In this document: positions 18,709-50,519 of the stretch, one piece after another
Layout of the letters: each line of letters opens with the position of its first letter
Numbering within the stretch: position 1 is the stretch's first letter
NCBI GenBank assembly: GCA_964544545.1
Contig: CAZJCG010000015.1
Span: 6,735 to 70,734, forward strand
Source of the DNA: an uncultured Lentimicrobiaceae bacterium
GTDB taxonomy: Bacteria; Bacteroidota; Bacteroidia; Bacteroidales; UBA4417
DNA length: 64,000 nucleotides
Direction of reading: 5' to 3'
Notes under the pieces: generated by a model
Seen by the model: the letters and a program-made list of their open reading frames with translations, nothing else
The model's database searches: none
What the model was told of the DNA's origin: nothing
Position numbers and translations under genes: made by a program

Positions 18709-18792
18709 GCCCCGGTGGCGGAATAGGTAGACGCGTCGGTCTCAAAAACCGATGGACGTGAGTCCGTGCCGGTTCGATTCCGGCCCGGGGTA
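18709..18792 (+). tRNA. tRNA-Leu (anticodon CAA), type II with long variable arm
   Basis: Manual cloverleaf. Acceptor GCCCCGG/CCGGGGT (G1-U72). Anticodon stem TCGGT/ACCGA with loop CTCAAAA. Variable arm TGGACGTGAGTCCGTG. T arm GCCGG-TTCGATT-CCGGC. Discriminator A. CCA is not encoded. Confidence 0.9.
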
Positions 18793-18802
18793 CAGATCAA
18801 TC

Positions 18803-19062: not shown

Positions 19063-19111
19063 TTATTTGCTGATTTTCAGGCAGTCTTTATCTGACTAAT
19101 TCACATTGCTT

Positions 19112-19167
19112 TTACTAATCTTCGAATTGGCTAATCAGCTAATTGGCTAATCAGCTAATCGGCTAAT
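19112..19167. repeat. Seven-unit tandem array of an 8-bp repeat (NNGCTAAT)
   Basis: Units: ttactaat cttcgaat tggctaat cagctaat tggctaat cagctaat cggctaat. The same unit set, including the C(T/G)TCGAAT variant, recurs at 47723-47762. Confidence 0.7.
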
Positions 19168-19240
19168 TGATGATAACCTGCTAAGATTCGGTTGTTCGAC
19201 ATCTCTTTTCAAAACGCTGTCTCATGAATATGAAGAAAAA

Positions 19241-34746: not shown

Positions 34747-37596
34747 ATGGATATCATGGAACTCCCATTCCGGTGTTGTCTATTCTTTTTGTTTCTGCTG
34801 TTCCTGTCAGATCAGCAGGCTTTCGGGCAAATACCCGACAGCCTGTTGAGCAGCCGGGAACAGTGCAATGCATTCAATACAGTGACAGAAACCAATGGGA
34901 ATGTCACCTGTTACGTTCAGAAGGGCAGTGCACTTCCTGTCACCACCGCTTCGGCTGGTCCGGACGACTCCATTTGCCAGGGAACTCCCAGCTATACCAT
35001 CACCGGAACTTCTGCAACGAATTACATCAACCTGTGGTGGACCACGACCGGGCTTGGAATACTATCCAATTCGAATTCACTGAACCCTGTATACTACCCT
35101 CCTTCCAACGAGACCGGTTCTATCACGATGACCCTGACGGCAGCCGGGGCCGGACCGGGAAGCATTGTCACTGACCAGCGGATCCTCAGCATTATTCCGG
35201 CGCCCATGGTATCGGCAGGTATCGACGATTCCATCTGCATGGGAGAAACCTTTTCACCCGTCACAGCTTATGCATCCTTCTATTCCGGCCTGCATTGGGT
35301 GACCGGCGGAAACGGAATATTTGATGATCCGCGGAGTATTACCCCGATCTACACACCCGGTTTCACTGACATCAGGAATGGCAGAGTTGTACTTTCGCTG
35401 ATAGCCGATGGTTTCACGCCCTGTAATTCTCCTGCCGACAGTATGACGCTGTTCATCTTCAGGCCTCCGGTTACAGATGCAGGACCGGATGGTGAAATCT
35501 GTGAAGGTTTGCCCTATACCATCACAGGGTCAGAAGTACTGCATCCCGGAACCATAGTATGGACACATACCGGCGCCGGGACTCTGGACGGAGAAAATCT
35601 GCTATCCCCGACTTACACTCCTGCACCCGGTGAAACCGGGATGATAACGCTGACGCTCCATTCAACCAACCGTTGCGGCAGTTCATCCGATTATACGCTC
35701 CTTACGATCTATGCCCTACCCACCGTTTCTGCAGGTAATGATACACTCTCCTGCAATCTGTCACCCGTAAAGCCTGGCGCATCGGCAACGACCAATGCAG
35801 CTGACCTGTTATGGACGACTTCCGGTTCCGGCAATTTCGATAACCCTGAGTTACTGCACCCTCTCTATTACCCCGGAATTGACGATGTACAAGCCGGACA
35901 GGTAATTTTAAGCCTTTCGGCCAAAGGATTTGCCAATTGCGGAACCGTGACCGATCAGATGGTTTTGTCATTGAACCCGCTCCCTATTGTTAGTGCGGGT
36001 CCGGATGGCATTACCTGTCAGGGGATGCCGTTTCAGATCAAAGATGCCGTTGTATCCGGCGCTGACTCAGTAGCCTGGATCCACAACTCCTCCGGCACCC
36101 TGGAAGAAGCCAATACGTTGACTCCGACTTACCGGCCATCCGAAAGTGAATCAGGCAGCATCACGCTTATACTCACCGGAACCGGTGCAGAGGGCTGCGG
36201 GAACATATCCGACACCATGAACCTGTTGATACGCAAAGCGCCTGAAGTGAGTTGCGGCAACGACCTGTCGGCCTGCGGCACTTCACCGGTAAACCTGCCG
36301 GAGGCCCAGTATCAGAATTGCTGTTCTGTCAGGTGGACTACCGCAGGGGGCGGAACGTTCAACGATCCGACAAAACTGAATCCTGAATATCTTCCCGGAG
36401 AAAATGATCCGGAGGCTGGCACTGTCATACTGACCCTTCACGGGGCTGGATTGACTCCCTGCGGGGATGTAGCCGATGAACTTCTGTTGACTTTCGCAAA
36501 AAGCCCTGTTGCCGATGCCGGAACGGATGCTTCTATCTGCGAAGGTGAAACCTATACTTTATCAGATGTAAGATTGGAGAATGGAACTCCGGTCTGGAAT
36601 ATTATCCCCGGAAACAGCGGAACGCTCACCGGAACTGAAACGCTGACTCCCCTTTTTATGCCTGCTCCCGGCTTTTCCGGTAATGTGATCGTGAAACTAA
36701 CTGCAAAGGGATCAGAAGTCTGTGATAATGTACTGATATCGGACGAAATGCATCTTACCGTGAATGAAGCATTGAAAGGATACGCCGGAAATGACCAGGA
36801 GATTACCGAAGGTAACAAGGCCAGTTTACAGGGATCTGTCTCAAACGGTTCCGGTATTTACGCCTGGAGTTGGCAACCGGACAGTCTGCTTGAAAATTCA
36901 GAAGTAAAGGATCCGGTTACCATACCGCTGGACGATCCGGCTACTTTCACCCTTACAGTAATGGACCTCTCAACCGGTTGCACGGGCATTGATGAAGTAA
37001 CTGTTATGATCAGGCGCAATGTTACCGGAGAGCTCACAGCCCATGCAGATTATGATACAACCGTTGTTGATATTCCTTTACGCATCGACGTTCTGGCAAA
37101 TGACATCTACCCGGAAGGCAGACTCCCGGAAAACTCACTGTGCAGCATGCCGGCAAACGGAAAGGCTTCGGTGAATGACGATCTGAGTATCACCTATGAG
37201 CCTGATCCATCTTCCTTCGGGGATGACTCCCTCTGTTACCGGATTTGTATCCCGGAAATGCCTGAAATATGTTCCGAAAACCAGATTTATATTCACATTG
37301 CCGCTTCGGGCGCCGGCGACCTTGTAATCCCATCCGGAATAACCCCTAACGGAGACCATATCAACGATAACTGGATCATTCAGGGGATAGAAGAGTATCC
37401 TGACAACTCGGTTGTCATTTTCAACCGGTGGGGCGACAAGATCATTGAATATTCCCGTTACGACAATAGCGAGCAGGTGTGGTCAGGCCGGAACAGCCGC
37501 AACCAGAGGGTTTCGGATGGCACTTACTTCTATATTCTTGATATCAAAGACCTGGGCAAGCGTACAGGCTGGATTTTCGTCCGGGATAACCATTGA
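34747..37596 (+). CDS. Large repetitive secreted protein with a T9SS type B (gliding-motility-associated) C-terminal sorting domain
   Basis: 949 aa with a signal peptide. About seven ~90-aa repeats, each beginning AG.D..(I)C and containing W(T)T.G.G.F...L.P.Y.P. Then a cadherin/Ig-like segment. C-terminus: IPSGITPNGDHINDNWIIQGIEEYPDNSVVIFNRWGDKI...DGTYFYIL. Confidence 0.85.
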   Translation: MDIMELPFRCCLFFLFLLFLSDQQAFGQIPDSLLSSREQCNAFNTVTETNGNVTCYVQKGSALPVTTASAGPDDSICQGTPSYTITGTSATNYINLWWTTTGLGILSNSNSLNPVYYPPSNETGSITMTLTAAGAGPGSIVTDQRILSIIPAPMVSAGIDDSICMGETFSPVTAYASFYSGLHWVTGGNGIFDDPRSITPIYTPGFTDIRNGRVVLSLIADGFTPCNSPADSMTLFIFRPPVTDAGPDGEICEGLPYTITGSEVLHPGTIVWTHTGAGTLDGENLLSPTYTPAPGETGMITLTLHSTNRCGSSSDYTLLTIYALPTVSAGNDTLSCNLSPVKPGASATTNAADLLWTTSGSGNFDNPELLHPLYYPGIDDVQAGQVILSLSAKGFANCGTVTDQMVLSLNPLPIVSAGPDGITCQGMPFQIKDAVVSGADSVAWIHNSSGTLEEANTLTPTYRPSESESGSITLILTGTGAEGCGNISDTMNLLIRKAPEVSCGNDLSACGTSPVNLPEAQYQNCCSVRWTTAGGGTFNDPTKLNPEYLPGENDPEAGTVILTLHGAGLTPCGDVADELLLTFAKSPVADAGTDASICEGETYTLSDVRLENGTPVWNIIPGNSGTLTGTETLTPLFMPAPGFSGNVIVKLTAKGSEVCDNVLISDEMHLTVNEALKGYAGNDQEITEGNKASLQGSVSNGSGIYAWSWQPDSLLENSEVKDPVTIPLDDPATFTLTVMDLSTGCTGIDEVTVMIRRNVTGELTAHADYDTTVVDIPLRIDVLANDIYPEGRLPENSLCSMPANGKASVNDDLSITYEPDPSSFGDDSLCYRICIPEMPEICSENQIYIHIAASGAGDLVIPSGITPNGDHINDNWIIQGIEEYPDNSVVIFNRWGDKIIEYSRYDNSEQVWSGRNSRNQRVSDGTYFYILDIKDLGKRTGWIFVRDNH

Positions 37597-43965: not shown

Positions 43966-44408
43966 TCACAGGGATGAACACTCAAGGTTGTACAATTGTT
44001 ATTTCATTCCTTGTTCCTTTTTGTGAAGATATACCACGCTATAATCTTGCGAAACCCTCAAAGATGAATGCAAAGTCAGAACTATATCAGTGATGAGTAT
44101 ATGATTGTGAAGAAGTTATTTTGCTCCATTTTCATTAAACGAATTGTGTAAACTTTGTCATATTTATAATCCGCTGTTAACGGGCTTTCTGGAATCAGCC
44201 AATATCAAGGCTTTTAATAGTTATTAAGATTTCTATTTTCTGTTTCTCAGCGATTTAACACTATGTAATTTGAATATTGTTAATAAAACGTTTTGTGATA
44301 AGGGAAAACCTTGTTGTAATTTGGCTGAAAGGTTCAGCAACAATTACGAAATAAGTGTAATTGCTGTAAATCAGGTTTTTGTCTTTCTTTAAAGTAGATT
44401 TTACGAGA

Positions 44409-47144
44409 ATGGATAAACTTCAGGATGCAAATCTGTTTTCAATCATTGATTCCTCTTTGGAAGACGACGTTAAACACGGTTTCTACAACAAAGTATTGGA
44501 GAATCGCCATCGTCCCGACGGGATGCCTGAGCAGCAGCAGGAACCAGTAATATTACCAAAGGAAAGGATTGAAACAACTTCCATGCAACCGAAGAAAGAA
44601 ACAACAGAAGTACCACAGCAGTTGACAGCCTATTCGCATGAGGAGGTGTTGGCGGCAGCTACCGTCTATTTTAAAGGCGATACGCTTGCAGCCAATGTCT
44701 GGATGAATAAATATGCCCTGAAAGATAGTGACGGGAACATTTATGAGCGCACGCCCGATGATATGCATCACCGGCTTGCTTCCGAAGTGGCCCGTATTGA
44801 GCGTAAATACCCGAATCCCATGAGTGAAGAGGAAATTTTCGAGCTCTTCCGGGATTTCCGATACATTGTTCCGCAAGGAAGCCCCATGGCCGGCATAGGC
44901 AACCGTTTTCAGGTTTCCTCCCTCTCGAATTGTTTTGTGATCGGAGGTGATAACAACCAGGATTCATACGGGGCCATCATGAAGGTGGATGAAGAACAGG
45001 TACAGCTCATGAAACGCCGTGGCGGCGTCGGGCACGACCTGTCACACATCCGTCCCTCCGGCAGTCCTGTAAAGAACAGCGCCCTCTCCTCTACCGGCAT
45101 TGTTCCTTTTATGGAACGTTACAGCAATTCCACGCGGGAAGTTGCACAGGATGGTCGCCGCGGAGCTTTAATGCTCTCTATCTCCATCAAGCACCCGGAT
45201 TCGGAAAACTTCATCGATGCCAAGATGGTCCAGGGGAAAGTGACCGGGGCCAATGTGTCGGTCAAGATCGATGACGAATTCATGCGGGCTGTGAAGGAAA
45301 ACGGTACATACCGTCAGCAATATCCTGTTGAATCATCGAACCCGATGAAGATTCAGGAGATTGAAGCCCGGAAGCTCTGGGATAAGATCATCCACAACGC
45401 ATGGCAGTCAGCCGAACCGGGCGTGCTGTTCTGGGATACCATTATCCGGGAAGCCGTTCCCGACTGCTATTCGGACCTGGGATTCAAGACCCAGTCGACG
45501 AATCCATGCGGCGAAATACCGCTCTGTCCTTACGACAGTTGCCGCCTGCTTGCATTGAACCTTTACAGCTACGTTGAAAATCCGTTTACCGCTGCCGCCA
45601 CTTTCAATGCCGACCTTTTCGCTAAGCATTCCCGCTACGCCCTGCGGATCATGGACGATATCATCGACCTGGAAATGGAGAAGATTGAGGGTATTCTGGC
45701 CAAGATTGACGGCGATCCCGAAGATCCGGAGATCAAGCGCACCGAAAGACTGTTGTGGGAAAAGATACGCGAAAAGACCCTGCAAGGACGCCGCACAGGT
45801 ATTGGCATAACTGCTGAAGGCGATATGCTTGCTGCACTCGGACTCCGATACGGAACTTCTGAGGCCACCAACTTCAGTGTAAACGTTCACAGAACCCTGG
45901 CCATAGAAGCTTACGGTTCCTCTGTTGACCTGGCTGCCGAACGCGGAGCCTTCCCCATTTACAACACCGAAAGGGAGAAGAACAATCCGTTCATTAACCG
46001 GATCCGGGAAGCCGCTCCCGAAACGTATGAAAAAATGATCCGTTACGGGCGCAGGAACATCAGCATGCTCACCATCGCCCCAACCGGCAGTGTCAGCATT
46101 TGCACCCAGACTTCTTCCGGCATTGAGCCTGTTTTCATGGTGAGCTACAAACGCCGCCGTAAAGTCAACCCGAACGATAAAAACGTTAACGTTACCTTCG
46201 TGGATGAGGTGGGCGATTCATGGGAAGAATACAACGTTTTCCATCCCAAGTTCCTCGACTGGATGCGCCTGAACGGTTACGATGTGGATGCCGCCAATGC
46301 ATACACCGATGATGAACTGAAACCTATCATCGAGAAATCACCTTATTTCAAGGCCACTTCCAACGATATCGACTGGGTTGCCAAGGTGCATATGCAGGGC
46401 GCCATTCAGAAATGGGTCGACCACAGCATCAGCGTTACCGTAAACCTGCCTTCTGATGTGACGGAAGAGTTGGTGAGTAAAGTGTACCTTACCGCATGGG
46501 AAAGCGGCTGTAAAGGGATGACCATCTACCGCGACGGATCCCGTTCGGGTGTGCTCGTCAGCAATGAGACTAAAACGGAAGAAACCACAACCTTCAAAGA
46601 AACCAAGGCTCCGCCCCGTCCCGAGATACTGGAAGCCGATGTTGTTCGTTTCACCAACGAAAGCGAAAAATGGATCGCCGTTGTGGGTCTTATGGACAAC
46701 AAACCTTACGAGATCTTCACCGGTAAAAGTGAGGATTTCTTCCTCCCGGAATGGGTTGAAAAAGGCTGCGTGATCCGTCAGAAACACGAAGGCCAGCGTG
46801 CCCAGTACAATTTCCGCTATCAGGATCGTCAGGGATACAAAGTGACCTATGAAGGATTGTCGAGAACGTTCGAAAAAGAGTACTGGAACTATGCCAAGCT
46901 TATCTCCGGTATCCTGCGTCATGGTATGCCGCTGCATTACGTGGTAAGCCTTATTGACAACCTGACTTTCGACAAGGATTTCATTACCACCTGGAAGAAC
47001 GGCGTGGTACGCACCTTGTCGCGGTACATCACCGATCCGGTTGATACAGGGGAAACCTGTCCAAAATGTGAATCAAAGAATTCGCTCTACCGCAAGGAGG
47101 GGTGTATTTACTGCAAAAATTGCGACTATTCCAAGTGCGGATAG
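44409..47144 (+). CDS. nrdJ: Adenosylcobalamin-dependent ribonucleotide reductase (class II)
   Basis: STNPCGEIPL active-site loop, TIAPTGSVS, and a C-terminal Cys cluster CPKC...CIYCKNC. ATG 44409 (MDKLQD) is preferred over TTG 44379. About 90 aa of low-conservation N-terminal extension. Confidence 0.9.
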   Translation: MDKLQDANLFSIIDSSLEDDVKHGFYNKVLENRHRPDGMPEQQQEPVILPKERIETTSMQPKKETTEVPQQLTAYSHEEVLAAATVYFKGDTLAANVWMNKYALKDSDGNIYERTPDDMHHRLASEVARIERKYPNPMSEEEIFELFRDFRYIVPQGSPMAGIGNRFQVSSLSNCFVIGGDNNQDSYGAIMKVDEEQVQLMKRRGGVGHDLSHIRPSGSPVKNSALSSTGIVPFMERYSNSTREVAQDGRRGALMLSISIKHPDSENFIDAKMVQGKVTGANVSVKIDDEFMRAVKENGTYRQQYPVESSNPMKIQEIEARKLWDKIIHNAWQSAEPGVLFWDTIIREAVPDCYSDLGFKTQSTNPCGEIPLCPYDSCRLLALNLYSYVENPFTAAATFNADLFAKHSRYALRIMDDIIDLEMEKIEGILAKIDGDPEDPEIKRTERLLWEKIREKTLQGRRTGIGITAEGDMLAALGLRYGTSEATNFSVNVHRTLAIEAYGSSVDLAAERGAFPIYNTEREKNNPFINRIREAAPETYEKMIRYGRRNISMLTIAPTGSVSICTQTSSGIEPVFMVSYKRRRKVNPNDKNVNVTFVDEVGDSWEEYNVFHPKFLDWMRLNGYDVDAANAYTDDELKPIIEKSPYFKATSNDIDWVAKVHMQGAIQKWVDHSISVTVNLPSDVTEELVSKVYLTAWESGCKGMTIYRDGSRSGVLVSNETKTEETTTFKETKAPPRPEILEADVVRFTNESEKWIAVVGLMDNKPYEIFTGKSEDFFLPEWVEKGCVIRQKHEGQRAQYNFRYQDRQGYKVTYEGLSRTFEKEYWNYAKLISGILRHGMPLHYVVSLIDNLTFDKDFITTWKNGVVRTLSRYITDPVDTGETCPKCESKNSLYRKEGCIYCKNCDYSKCG

Positions 47145-47166
47145 CACACTCGTTTTTCTGCCTCAA

Positions 47167-47205
47167 AACCCCGTGATCATATCTGGTTGCGGGGTTGTTC
47201 TTTTT
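47167..47205 (+). terminator. Intrinsic terminator after nrdJ
   Basis: Stem AACCCCG / CGGGGTT (7 bp) with a 16-nt loop, followed by GTTCTTTTT. Confidence 0.55.
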
Positions 47206-47250
47206 AGGGGCGGAGGGCAAAGAGCGAAGGGCAAAGGGAGTCGTCAATCA

Positions 47251-47330
47251 GTTGTCATTCGTAGTAATTCATAGTCATTCGTAGTCATTCGTAGTCATTC
47301 GTAGCTATTCGTAGCTATTCATAGTAAGTC
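47251..47330. repeat. Eight-unit tandem 10-bp repeat (consensus GTAGTCATTC)
   Basis: Units: gttgtcattc gtagtaattc atagtcattc gtagtcattc gtagtcattc gtagctattc gtagctattc atagtaagtc. Confidence 0.85.
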
Positions 47331-47405
47331 TTTTATCTTTTTACTTTTATCTTTTGTCTTTAAGCAGCCTAGAGCGAAGGGCAAAGGGCTGAGGAGAACT
47401 CACAA

Positions 47406-47445
47406 GTCATTCATGGTTATTCATAGTCATTCATAGTCATTCGTT
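47406..47445. repeat. Four-unit tandem 10-bp repeat of the same family (GTCATTCATA)
   Basis: Units: gtcattcatg gttattcata gtcattcata gtcattcgtt. Confidence 0.8.
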
Positions 47446-47660
47446 GTGAATTCTTTTATCTTTTTCCTTTTGTCTTTTATCTTGTAAATGCTGAGGGCAA
47501 AGAGCAGAGAGCATGGAGGTATAGTAGAAATTCATGTTGAATTTTTAAATTCTTAAATTTTCAAATCTCTTAATTAACTGATTAGCTAATTATCACATTC
47601 TCAAATCCTTTTATCTTTTTCCTTTTGTCTTTTGTCTTTTCATTGTCAGGCCAAGTTTCT

Positions 47661-47700
47661 CGCAGATTCCGCAGAAAAAAAACGCAGATTTCCGCAGAAG
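47661..47700. repeat. Direct duplication CGCAGATT(T)CCGCAGAA separated by an A-run
   Basis: Sequence: cgcagattccgcagaa-aaaaaa-cgcagatttccgcagaa. Confidence 0.7.
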
Positions 47701-47722
47701 TACATGGCTCATCAACGTTTAT

Positions 47723-47762
47723 TGACTAATCAGCTAATCAGCTAATCGTCGAATTAGCTAAT
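47723..47762. repeat. Five-unit tandem 8-bp repeat (NNGCTAAT), same family as 19112-19167
   Basis: Units: tgactaat cagctaat cagctaat cgtcgaat tagctaat. Confidence 0.75.
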
Positions 47763-47993
47763 TCTTACATTCTTACATTCTCAAATTCTTTTATCTTTTT
47801 CCTTTTATCTTTTATCTTGCAAATGCTGAGGGCAAAGGGCAAAGGGCCGGGAGGGTACCAATAAAAAACAAAGAAGATAAGTTTTGCAGGATCAAATAGC
47901 AACCTTACGCTACCACCGGATAAACAACGGATTAGCACAAAGCGTGAAGTTGATTAAATTTACAGAGTATTTGTTTCTGTAAGAGCCCTGAAG

Positions 47994-50519
47994 GTGAAAC
48001 CCTATGCCGTCCTGAGCATCCCGCTTCTATGCCTTGCCGTTTACCTGGCAACCTGGCTGCTGCAAAGGTTTGGAGTGATCTCCAACAGCTCTCTGCGTAA
48101 ATTCTGGAATTCAGTCCTGTTAATCGCTTTCCTTGGTGCTGCCGGGCTCGGATTTCTGTTAGCGATCCAGGTCAATCTGAAAATCGACCTTCCGGCGGCA
48201 GCATCCTTTCTACTGTGGCACGTCGATTTCGGGATCGGGCTCCTTTCCATCGCTCTGATCCATTTGATTCGGCACCTGCGTTATTTCAGAGATCTCATCT
48301 TTCCGAGAAGGGAAAGTCCTGACCGCTCCGGAGGTAATCATGATGCTGTCAGGCAACAGGGAAGGAATGAAGTCACGTCCGAAATCCGCTCCGGAATATT
48401 GCTTCCATTTATCCTTGGCTTTACGGCCATGGCCTCCCAGATCATCCTTCTGCGGGAATTCATGTCGCTTTTCCAGGGGAATGAACTCTCGATTGCGATA
48501 GTACTTGCCAACTGGATGCTGCTGACCGGTCTGGGTGCATGGCTTGGCAGAAAAGGAAAGCAATCCGGGATTTCGCTCCGTCCTGTTCTGTCCGGGATTG
48601 CTATATTGTCGGTGTTGGCTCCGGTCACCTTATTCACCGCCGATCTGCTGAAGGTTGTCATCTTTCCTTCAGGGACCCTTGTGGGACTGGGTGGCATATT
48701 CCTGAGCGCACTGGTTCTGCTTGCTCCTTTCTGTCTGCTTTCAGGATTTCTTTTTACCCGGATCACCGGACGGTTATCCTCTCCGGATGCCAATACCCCG
48801 GCAACGGTATATTCGCTGGAATCGCTAGGAAGTATGGCAGGAGGCATGCTGGTCAATCTGGTCCTCATTTTCCTGCTCAAACCGTTTTACAGCATGCTGG
48901 CGGTTGTGTTGTTGAGCCTGTTTCTGACAGCGATCGTTGCACATCGCAACAAACTGGCAAGATTGAACAGGGCGTTGATCCCCGTTATGTTTCTGTTTAC
49001 CCTGGTGATGATCTCCGTTAATCCGGACAGGCTGAGCCGGAAAATGCTGTTCCCGGGGCAGGAGATTGAATACTACCGTAATACGCCTTATGGCTCGCTG
49101 TTAGTCACCCGATCAGCCGAACAGCGCAATTTCTTTGGCAACACCTCCCTGCTCTTTACCACCAACGACGTTATCTCCAATGAGGAGGCCATCCATTACG
49201 CCTTGCTACAGCGGCCGTCGCCGAAAAATGTTATGCTTGTCGAAGGCGGTATATCAGGAACCCTGAAAGAGATCCTGAAGTACCCGGTAGAAAAAGTAAA
49301 ATACGTGGAGTTGAATCCCTGGATTATCCGGCTTGGCCGGAAGTACACCAAAGAATTGTCGGATCAGCGCGTAAGCCTCTGTCAGGGCGATGTCCTTAAT
49401 TTTTTACGACGGGAAACGGTGCTACAGGATGCCATTCTGTTACAGGTGCCCGAGCCTTCTTCTCTCATGGTCAACCGTTTCTATACGCTGGAATTCTTTA
49501 AATTAGTCCGATCGAAACTCAAACCTGGAGGTGTATGCTCGGTGGGACTGATGCCTACGCCAAACTATGTTGGCGACGAAGCCAGGCAGGTACAGTCCGT
49601 CATGCTTTCCACGCTGAAGAAGGTTTTCCCAACCGTCATCCTGATCCCCGGGGAAAAGAACTATTTCCTTGCCTCCACCGGGCCACTGGATACAGGGGTA
49701 GCCGGACTCCAGGAAATCCGGGGTATCCCGACTGAGTATGTGAATAGTTACTATCTCGACGACACAATCATTCGTGCCCGGAGCAAAGAGATCACAGGTG
49801 CCTTGTCGAACACAGCAGAGATCAATCAGGATTTCAAACCTCTGTTATTTTTCGGACAAATCCGGTATTGGCTTAGTTACTTCGGGAAGCCATCCGCTCT
49901 CTTTCTGTTACTTCCCCTGTTGCTGTTCTTTCTGCTCGTCTGGGGGTTACACGCCCGTCCGGTAAATACAGGCGTCATGGTTACCGGGTTCACGGCATCT
50001 TCTGTTGAGATACTTCTGCTATTCGTCTTCCAGGTCCTGTTTGGGAACCTTTACCTGATGGCGGGTCTTATCATTCTGGTATTCATGGCAGGATTGTACC
50101 TGGGTGCCGGCCGATTCGGTAAAAGGTTCCGGGTTTCTTCGGCTCATAACCTGGTACGGGTACAGATGCTCATCGCCCTGGTTTGTCTGATGATTTTAGA
50201 TGCGGTGGCCGGATTCACAGTGATCGCACTCCCTTCCTGGCTCATACAGGCATGTATTCTATTGCTGATCCTGATCATCTCCGTAATCACCGGTATCCAG
50301 TATCGAGTTTCGGCACTGGTGCTTGCCGGTGAGCCGCAGCATGTTTCGGGGTCTCTCTACAGTGCAGATCTGCTGGGATCGGCAACCGGCACTTTGCTGG
50401 TGAGTGTCTGGCTGACGCCTCTACTGGGAATACAGGGTACCTTGCTGGCGCTGGCAGGCTTGAATATTCTGACCGCCATCTGGCTGAATCTTCGGCTGAA
50501 AAAGGTATCTTTGAAGTAG
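47994..50519 (+). CDS. Polytopic membrane protein with an embedded spermidine-synthase-like (class I methyltransferase-fold) domain
   Basis: 841 aa. About 8 TM helices, then a soluble domain (VMLVEGGISGTLKEILKYPVEKVKYVELNPWII...QGDVLNFL, spermidine synthase-like), then ~6 more TM helices. The start is a GTG; there is no in-frame ATG nearby. Confidence 0.7.
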   Translation: MKPYAVLSIPLLCLAVYLATWLLQRFGVISNSSLRKFWNSVLLIAFLGAAGLGFLLAIQVNLKIDLPAAASFLLWHVDFGIGLLSIALIHLIRHLRYFRDLIFPRRESPDRSGGNHDAVRQQGRNEVTSEIRSGILLPFILGFTAMASQIILLREFMSLFQGNELSIAIVLANWMLLTGLGAWLGRKGKQSGISLRPVLSGIAILSVLAPVTLFTADLLKVVIFPSGTLVGLGGIFLSALVLLAPFCLLSGFLFTRITGRLSSPDANTPATVYSLESLGSMAGGMLVNLVLIFLLKPFYSMLAVVLLSLFLTAIVAHRNKLARLNRALIPVMFLFTLVMISVNPDRLSRKMLFPGQEIEYYRNTPYGSLLVTRSAEQRNFFGNTSLLFTTNDVISNEEAIHYALLQRPSPKNVMLVEGGISGTLKEILKYPVEKVKYVELNPWIIRLGRKYTKELSDQRVSLCQGDVLNFLRRETVLQDAILLQVPEPSSLMVNRFYTLEFFKLVRSKLKPGGVCSVGLMPTPNYVGDEARQVQSVMLSTLKKVFPTVILIPGEKNYFLASTGPLDTGVAGLQEIRGIPTEYVNSYYLDDTIIRARSKEITGALSNTAEINQDFKPLLFFGQIRYWLSYFGKPSALFLLLPLLLFFLLVWGLHARPVNTGVMVTGFTASSVEILLLFVFQVLFGNLYLMAGLIILVFMAGLYLGAGRFGKRFRVSSAHNLVRVQMLIALVCLMILDAVAGFTVIALPSWLIQACILLLILIISVITGIQYRVSALVLAGEPQHVSGSLYSADLLGSATGTLLVSVWLTPLLGIQGTLLALAGLNILTAIWLNLRLKKVSLK

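Follow-up and report, generated by a model that had tools for sequence, protein, structure and literature searches.

BOX elements of Streptococcus pneumoniae are arranged as boxA-boxB(n)-boxC, and a mosaic organisation is the hallmark of bacterial interspersed mosaic elements (BIMEs). The small dispersed repeats (SDRs) that Elhai et al. reportedly described from Nostoc punctiforme in 2008, in work that PMC3116915 cites, are said to be units of ~20-30 nt inserted in tandem-repeat contexts without a full-length parent, and to our knowledge neither polarity nor a module grammar has been described for them. Here we set beside these and other repeat systems a mosaic tract of about 650 nt that lies downstream of the gene nrdJ, at 47207-47855 of a 64,000-nt stretch of DNA from an uncultured Lentimicrobiaceae bacterium (“the window”; coordinates are window positions unless a contig or locus is named). 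The window is C15:6735-70734 of the host genome G000, a fragmented draft metagenome-assembled genome (MAG) of 3.87 Mb in 99 contigs with 47.5% GC.

Heptamer arrays, as they are cited in two papers (PMC4679880, PMC4692102), include the short tandemly repeated repetitive sequences (STRR) of heterocystous cyanobacteria and the long simple sequence repeats (LSSR). TAACTGA repeats occur in Beggiatoaceae, Cyanobacteria and a few Bacteroidetes (PMC4679880), and GGGAATC and GGGGAYT repeats in Xanthomonas and Nostoc (PMC4692102). BIMEs and repetitive extragenic palindromes (REPs) are found in Enterobacteria and Pseudomonas (PMC3733652, PMC3116915), where one end of the REP palindrome bears an unpaired tag, GTAG or CGTC (PMC3733652). 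Porphyromonas gingivalis carries 19 copies of BrickBuilt, a transposable element of the miniature inverted-repeat kind (MITE) with small inverted ends and an internal minisatellite of one 23-nt repeat, which has promoter activity (PMC4596501).

A genome-wide family of polar repeat mosaics

The tract belongs to a genome-wide family of non-coding repeat mosaics, polar and modular in build, that we consider to be probably selfish or neutral DNA. Searches of G000 demonstrated the copy number, intergenic restriction, polarity and grammar of this family. The genome holds ~270-300 copies of a T-rich unit, hereafter the T-core, and ~400 repeat islands of at least 40 nt. Of the 32-nt T-core that stands second in the tract there are 18 exact copies, and 240 if up to three mismatches are allowed. 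A 26-nt degenerate T-core pattern gave 294 matches with up to two mismatches, far more than chance would give, and 0 when read backwards as a control. Sequences of 14 nt found at least eight times account for 60.6 kb, spread over 632 islands, of which 404 measure at least 40 nt, and the repeat kit makes up ~1.6% of the genome. BLAST of the tract against G000 returned 926 high-scoring segment pairs elsewhere, which cover it from ~47210 to ~47855. These include multi-module matches of 230-370 nt at 77-85% identity; thus, composite blocks are dispersed, not single motifs alone. With genes called as crude open reading frames (ORFs), as in all the genome-wide tests, 257 of 269 T-cores lie outside the calls in a genome that is 86% coding. 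An initial annotation, made from the letters of the window alone, had described a non-coding mosaic of recurring modules, and the genome-wide search bears this out, with the modules found hundreds of times.

Local low-complexity drift by slippage alone, or mis-assembly of repeat reads, could be proposed for such a tract, and the 99-contig draft gives some ground for it. T-containing islands lie at contig ends in 46 of 151 cases, and both ends of contig C15 (~36; 75089-75158) lie in repeat islands. Islands break short-read assemblies, and their position at contig ends indicates that they rank among the chief reasons why this MAG is fragmented; in a draft with islands at contig edges, array lengths may therefore be wrong. 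The presence of the modules at hundreds of loci nevertheless rules out random local drift. The same modules stand in the same order at these loci, modules recur in independent assemblies that include megabase contigs and a complete chromosome, and the same kit was found in a separate metagenome. As an account of the family's existence, drift or artefact is largely refuted, and we regard it as extremely unlikely.

The islands follow a one-directional grammar, P > D/H > T > P > A > E > F > T > {P, C, end}, which emerges from a transition matrix of 127 islands whose direction was set by their T-cores. Here T is the T-core, P a purine block, D a 10-nt array, A a small palindrome, and E and F are 8-nt arrays. 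The genome-wide transitions were T>P 107, T>end 83, E>F 80, F>T 63, D>T 55, T>C/c 40, P>D 29, A>E 29 and P>A 16. Only two T modules and one F module were reversed in the 127 islands, and in 72 of the 73 islands with at least two T-cores these share a single orientation. The T-core itself has a fixed unit order, CTTTTAT-CTTTTT(C/A)-CTTTT(A/G)T-CTTTT(A/G)T-CTT, and 189 of 301 T arrays consist of exactly four 7-nt units plus CTT, so that it is a discrete element and not a free microsatellite.

Two other discrete units belong to the kit. The CGCAGA element, module C, is a 96-nt palindrome in which four CGCAGAT-type repeats oppose four ATCTGCG-type repeats (e.g. C23:754-849). It is bounded by TTCTCGCAGAT...ATCTGCGAGAA, keeps a constant direction relative to the T-core and resembles elements of the enterobacterial repetitive intergenic consensus (ERIC) and Correia type; a full-length search pattern matched 50 times, with 44 matches of 90-99 nt. 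A 16-nt GC hairpin, TCCGCCGGCTGGCGGA, is present in 74 copies within 10-nt arrays of G000, in constant direction and with TCATT on both sides in 45 of the 74, and is absent from the window island. We also observed an element of ~160 nt with inverted ends CACTGTTGTCCGG...CCAGACAATAGTG and core CCCCTCTTCCCGATGAATCGGGACAGG, inserted within 8-nt arrays in 11 copies, with sites at C23:~880-1040, C10:~35640-35800, C70 and C5.

The window copy conforms to the grammar. Its module string reads P-D-T-P-D-T-P-A-F/E-T-c-E-F-T-P, on the + strand throughout apart from the palindrome, which has no strand. The tract is gene-free and composed almost wholly of recurring modules, and Tandem Repeats Finder (TRF) gave 16 rows in its 650 nt versus 18 in the remaining 63 kb, where overlapping rows may describe one array. 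It opens with a P block of 7-nt units RAGGGCN (GGGGCGGAGGGCAAAGAGCGAAGGGCAAAGGGAG; 47207-47241; TRF 47210-47238, family D7), a frequent first module of islands. There follow a 10-nt array of GTCATTCRTA (47253-47327; TRF 47254-47325, family D2), T-core 1 (TCTTTTATCTTTTTACTTTTATCTTTTGTCTTT; 47329-47361; four units plus CTT), a second P block (TAGAGCGAAGGGCAAAGGGCTGAGGAG; 47370-47396; family D7), a second 10-nt array that ends in GTGAAT (47406-47451; TRF 47405-47442) and T-core 2 (TCTTTTATCTTTTTCCTTTTGTCTTTTATCTT; 47452-47483), which is the 32-nt unit counted above. The third P block (47493-47519; families D5 and D7) is preceded by the spacer GTAAATGCT, and the palindrome AAATTCA-TGT-TGAATTT (47528-47544) anchors P to the 8-nt F/E arrays (AATTCTTA, TAATTAAC/GCTAATTA, ATTCTCAA; 47540-47606; TRF array 47540-47592, families D1 and D3). 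Beyond T-core 3 (CCTTTTATCTTTTTCCTTTTGTCTTTTGTCTTTT; 47607-47641) comes module c, the left arm only of a CGCAGA element (TTTCTCGCAGATTCCGCAGAAAAAAAACGCAGATTTCCGCAGAA; 47656-47700), with a duplicated CGCAGATT(T)CCGCAGAA at 47663-47700. An E array (CTAATCAG/CGAATTAG; 47724-47763; TRF array 47726-47762, family D1) and an F array (ATTCTTAC/ATTCTCAA; 47761-47786; TRF array 47761-47790) lead to T-core 4 (TCTTTTATCTTTTTCCTTTTATCTTTTATCTT; 47787-47818), with the 31-nt core CTTTTATC...ATCTT, of which the genome has 41 exact copies, more than of any other variant. The fourth P block (GAGGGCAAAGGGCAAAGGGCCGGGAGGG; 47828-47855), preceded by the spacer GCAAATGCT, closes the island. At this 3' end the + strand of 47830-47855 (GGGCAAAGGGCAAAGGGCCGGGAGGG) holds five G3 tracts with loops of 1-4 nt, which is a canonical G-quadruplex pattern at the level of sequence.

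Much of this layout had been read correctly beforehand: the four T-rich cores, which measure 31-33 nt, and the four purine blocks, the two blocks that follow a T-core through one or other spacer, the palindrome and the duplication are all in place. What had been listed as one 8-nt array turned out to be several. The two 10-nt arrays, put at eight and four copies, are present with TRF copy numbers of 7.2 and 3.8, and the claim that the tract has no ORF of at least 60 amino acids (aa) holds for ORFs wholly inside it, while three touch its edges (77 and 72 aa at the left, 57 aa at the right).

Turnover among relatives and spread of the T-core

Comparison with relatives demonstrated absence of the islands at orthologous sites of a sister species, a strain-level indel and a patchy spread across families. 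More than one T-core match was found in 4 of 25 genomes of the genus, namely G000, G002 (136), G013 (157) and G009 (12). The sister genome G012, in which the C-terminal 280 aa of NrdJ are 88% identical to those of G000, has no T-core. Using a chimeric query of the flanks of ten islands, we found 9-75 nt between the two flanks in G012 at 5 of the 6 orthologous sites, where G000 has ~440-1000 nt, which speaks for islands that are recent and dispensable. At its orthologous sites G002 was empty in three cases and in three had its own smaller, different islands, one of which carries T-type heptamers in the opposite orientation together with the hairpin variant TCCGTCAGCTGACGGA, whose palindrome is kept by paired changes. 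Sampled stretches of G002 and G044 contained only T and hairpin modules, with the P, E and F arrays absent and one weak D match in G044, and sister-species spacers with flanks ~70-80% identical do not align with the islands. In the control searches, the reversed T-core pattern matched 33 times in G008, of the same genus, and 0-9 times in the rest of the genus; thus, G008 may carry its own, different T-rich heptamer family.

A scan of Joint Genome Institute (JGI) metagenome contigs for the D>T junction identified two contigs (L138 and L139) from one sample, which are 97.7% and 93% identical to G000 over their full length. L139, 1,183 nt long and 93% identical overall, has a single base change over ~250 nt of flank beside the island, and its 10-nt array is longer than that of G000 by 32 nt, made up of the hairpin and array units, and carries two substitutions. 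L138 has the same flank as G000 and different array content. Near-identical flanks with altered arrays indicate that the arrays change faster than their surroundings. A comparison of array lengths between strains had been proposed at the outset, and the lengths do differ, by the 32-nt indel of the metagenome contig against G000. The D, E and F arrays vary both in the genome and between strains, and the T-core stays fixed at four units in the majority of copies counted above. Such differences between closely related strains could make the islands useful as strain markers.

An exact scan for the 26-nt core, with one genome per species, reached beyond the genus and found it on more than 111 contigs, nearly all from uncultured Bacteroidales/Bacteroidia MAGs of sediment, fen, soil and digesters, among them megabase contigs and one complete chromosome. 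When the order was sampled evenly, the T-core turned up in 24 of 301 genomes and in 20 of 202 genera, usually in 1-30 copies, and the reversed control gave 0 everywhere. The other modules are mostly missing from these core-bearing genomes, in which the core frequently lies directly against a start codon or against the end of a gene on the opposite strand.

In other Bacteroidales the T-core also forms the subterminal part of an element of ~190 nt, found at about ten loci (among them L041:4566-4753, L053, L057, L068, L080, L100 and L101) and at ~54 sites in G013. Its layout is TTAR, CCTGATTAATTCAT, an A-rich inverted copy, about 75 nt, the T-core, CTGCATGAATAATGCAGG and TTAR; the ends are CCTGATTAATTCAT...ATGAATAATGCAGG (CCTG...CAGG), and the T-core and its inverted A-rich copy are subterminal repeats. 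The 4-nt flanks are identical for each copy (TTAG/TTAG in L057 and L080, TTAA/TTAA in others), which indicates a target duplication and therefore a true MITE. We take this TTAR (YTAR-type) duplication to recall that of IS5-family elements. We found no full-length, transposase-bearing parent of this MITE, and the element is absent from G000, as are ends of the TTAACCTG type.

Orientation, folding and possible function

Between co-directional genes the T-rich strand of the islands is the coding strand in 22 and 13 cases and the other strand is in 21 and 15, and the spacer types (72 tandem, 19 convergent and 14 divergent) are near their background shares. Orientation had no association with local GC skew either (classes of 29, 28, 24 and 26; Fisher p = 0.85). 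Random orientation, spacer type and GC skew argue against models in which the islands are terminators, 5' untranslated regions or lagging-strand insertions of the IS200/IS605 type, and we rejected these.

The initial annotation had paired the T-core with the following purine block by hand, allowing G-U pairs, and had suggested that a + strand transcript would fold into long wobble-rich hairpins. As a functional RNA, such a transcript could act as a stabiliser, a terminator or a small RNA. The pairing exists: the 7-nt units CUUUU and RAGGG pair via two G-U wobbles, and T-core plus purine block folds at ~-15 kcal/mol on the + strand versus -6 to -8 on the other (~-15 to -17 on the T-rich strand versus ~-7 in the values taken to favour an RNA). 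Native P blocks also pair with T better than reversed (-15.1) or shuffled (-14.9) P blocks do (p ~1e-6), a gain of ~2 kcal/mol beyond composition that is confined to the T-rich strand. The T and P families are thus weakly complementary beyond composition, and the hand pairing was not imaginary.

The window copies, however, have no excess stability over dinucleotide shuffles (z of -0.34, +0.35 and +0.27), and the same is true of the whole island (+ strand, z = -0.31; - strand, z = -0.07). Across the 79 T>P units of the genome, cognate pairs reach -17.1 and swapped pairs -16.9 (p = 0.55), which leaves no copy-specific co-variation. Orientation is random relative to the flanking genes and their transcription, the tract lies 3' of an intact terminator, and an Rfam search of 44000-48300 at E up to 1 gave 0 matches. 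The suggested transcript hairpins did not withstand these comparisons, and we consider a functional RNA very improbable. For Bacteroidales MAGs in general, the family calls for caution in the annotation of small RNAs and regulatory regions.

Alternatively, the islands could function as DNA, either as clusters of binding sites or as structure-prone DNA (G-quadruplex, polypyrimidine, helically phased 10-mers), in nucleoid organisation, insulation, or promoter or terminator activity. Conservation of the T-core sequence across many families is consistent with this, as is the position of islands against gene ends with T as the terminal module 83 times. The G3-tract pattern of the 3' purine block is like that of the G4-forming heptamer repeats of Xanthomonas and Nostoc (PMC4692102), and the promoter activity of BrickBuilt is a precedent (PMC4596501). 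A function of this kind is hard to reconcile with orthologous spacers of a sister species, which lack islands, with content that differs between near-identical strains, with sampled stretches of G002 and G044 that lack all modules other than T and hairpin, and with the random orientation and spacer type. A scan for sigma-70-like promoters, which does not cover those of Bacteroidota, found none in the tract. We judge functional DNA to be quite unlikely. At the level of the locus the message is negative: the tract lies 3' of the nrdJ terminator, and we saw no sign that it regulates nrdJ or its neighbour.

Placement, copying and surroundings of the tract

Our verdict is that the tract belongs with STRR/LSSR and BIME/BOX-type repeat DNA, as selfish or neutral sequence; the earlier statement that no known class fits was too strong. 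Like STRR/LSSR, the family has tandem units of 7-10 nt that are nearly all intergenic, at many loci and often near a gene end, with a patchy, lineage-specific spread that suggests horizontal transfer and with length and sequence that vary among close relatives; its 7-, 8- and 10-nt arrays in 404 islands fall within the 5-11 nt units, intergenic at many loci, that define STRR/LSSR. Unlike them, it joins several arrays in fixed order and direction with discrete non-array units, its T “array” is a fixed four-unit element, and island orientation is unrelated to start codons. With BOX elements it shares a fixed module order, a variable number of internal modules (both seen over the 127 oriented islands), an intergenic location and the lack of a transposase of its own. 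This likeness is one of architecture only, as the family has many more module types, mostly 7-10 nt arrays, and occurs in another taxon.

BrickBuilt is likewise from Bacteroidales, always intergenic and composed of tandem repeats with leader and tail units, whereas our family has several arrays, no inverted ends and hundreds of copies. For the islands of G000 we found neither the terminal inverted repeats nor the target-site duplication of a MITE. Very small discrete repeated units within tandem-repeat contexts are shared with the SDRs, which come from another phylum and have other sequences.

The relation to REPs and BIMEs needs closer attention. If the tract were a BIME proper, clusters of REP-type hairpins and linkers would be moved as single-stranded DNA by a REP-associated tyrosine transposase (RAYT; Y1), and the arrays would be by-products. 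The family does consist, like BIMEs, of extragenic mosaics of a small unit kit plus linkers in hundreds of copies, with a small GC hairpin in the kit and one RAYT homologue in G000 (C1:208988-209545), and the tract itself is organised as a mosaic. The hairpin TCCGCCGGCTGGCGGA, in its 74 copies within 10-nt arrays, is followed by ...GTAG, it is present or absent between strains, and the G002 variant TCCGTCAGCTGACGGA is compensatory. The sequence after the hairpin is TCATTCGTAG, in which GTAG lies 6 nt away and is itself part of a 10-nt array unit. What flanks the RAYT gene is another hairpin, CCGCGCGAATCCTTTCGCGCGG, confined to that site. A GC hairpin is missing from the window island; T, P, D, E and F are direct arrays, and most modules are not palindromes. 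Nor do the units alternate, since they face one way in 72 of 73 islands, and there is no preference for convergent or tandem spacers, no bias to gene 3' ends and no replication-strand bias. As a REP/BIME the family falls short in four respects (palindromic units, a cognate RAYT, alternation of the units and a bias in spacer type), and we hold this origin to be improbable. In G009 (L125), a RAYT homologue of 80.6% identity lies directly 3' of nrdJ; RAYT is an IS200-like Y1 transposase.

The findings agree with non-coding DNA that is invasive, dispensable and quick to evolve, and from them we infer both the neutrality of the family and the manner of its copying. Discrete units (the 31-nt T-core, the 16-nt GC hairpin between its TCATT flanks and the 96-nt palindrome of CGCAGA type) and multi-module blocks would be copied into other intergenic spacers, and the 7-, 8- and 10-nt arrays between them would grow, shrink and duplicate by slippage and unequal recombination. 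Local expansion, contraction and duplication of arrays would account for every piece keeping the same direction. Selection would merely exclude the repeats from coding sequence.

Several observations weigh against a selfish or neutral mosaic copied in this way. In the islands of G000 we found no mobilising enzyme, terminal inverted repeat or target duplication, and the only RAYT gene sits beside another hairpin. Clustering of the ORFs next to T-cores at 111 loci of other species gave no recurrent gene family or transposase. The T-core is conserved nearly letter for letter in genomes of more than 12 families of the order, which recognition by a protein or a function would explain more easily. 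The T/P complementarity on the T-rich strand exceeds composition, strict polarity is unusual for junk DNA, and islands that often reach gene ends could affect the expression of their neighbours.

A tentative possibility, which we think unlikely, is that the T-core is the recognition or landing module of a putative trans-acting enzyme that spreads horizontally among Bacteroidales. The grammar would then come from site- and orientation-specific addition of units beside an existing T-core, loosely like cassette addition. If so, the mosaics would represent mobile non-coding DNA of a new type, one that has neither hairpins nor inverted ends, and the T/P wobble complementarity, seen on one strand only, could be a hint of a single-stranded intermediate. 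A putative recognition protein for the T-core is our favoured lead, as a candidate only.

Under the reading that we prefer, of selfish or neutral mosaics, two features of these repeats are unusual: their strict polarity and grammar, and the 31-nt core, which hardly changes from one bacterial family to the next and is built into different composite elements. Modules in a constant order and direction, and a near-identical core found in a MITE in one lineage and in mosaics in another, call for a copying mechanism that no known repeat system explains. A literature search by sequence words returned only unrelated primers and no published description of the family.

The tract begins 1 base past the intrinsic terminator of nrdJ (44379-47144; Ribonuc_red_lgC domain, E = 5e-89) and ends 138 nt short of the next gene, which starts at 47994 and encodes a membrane protein with a spermidine-synthase-like domain. 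The terminator, a 13-pair hairpin with a T-run (47167-47206, + strand; terminator scan), adjoins the mosaic upstream, lies outside it and is kept 3' of nrdJ in the sister genome G002. Other sequence follows nrdJ in relatives. In G012 (L120), the first ~100 nt past the conserved part of nrdJ contain a (GGGTGCT)n array that extends into the 3' end of the reading frame and replaces its last codons and stop (...CDYSGCWVLGAGCWVLGAEC*), with an inverted copy of the array ~150 nt further downstream; G002 has other arrays, of 8 and 17 nt; and more distant relatives have the terminator only. A metagenome scan for the nrdJ 3' junction gave no match.

Synteny is also broken at the island. A conserved gene on the minus strand lies directly 3' of nrdJ in G012, G002 and G005; in G000 this gene is on contig C47 (C47:2521-3805), with a plain 95-nt spacer and, as in G012, a radical-SAM-like gene behind it (window 47144-47994 compared with L120-L124). 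Since the gene 3' of nrdJ differs from that of all relatives checked, an orthologous spacer comparison is impossible at this site.

A second, small member of the family lies elsewhere in the window, an E-type 8-nt array (GCTAATCA/ATTGGCTA; 19110-19184, + strand; family D1) that sits ~320 nt downstream of tRNA-Leu(CAA) (18709-18793) and before the next gene.

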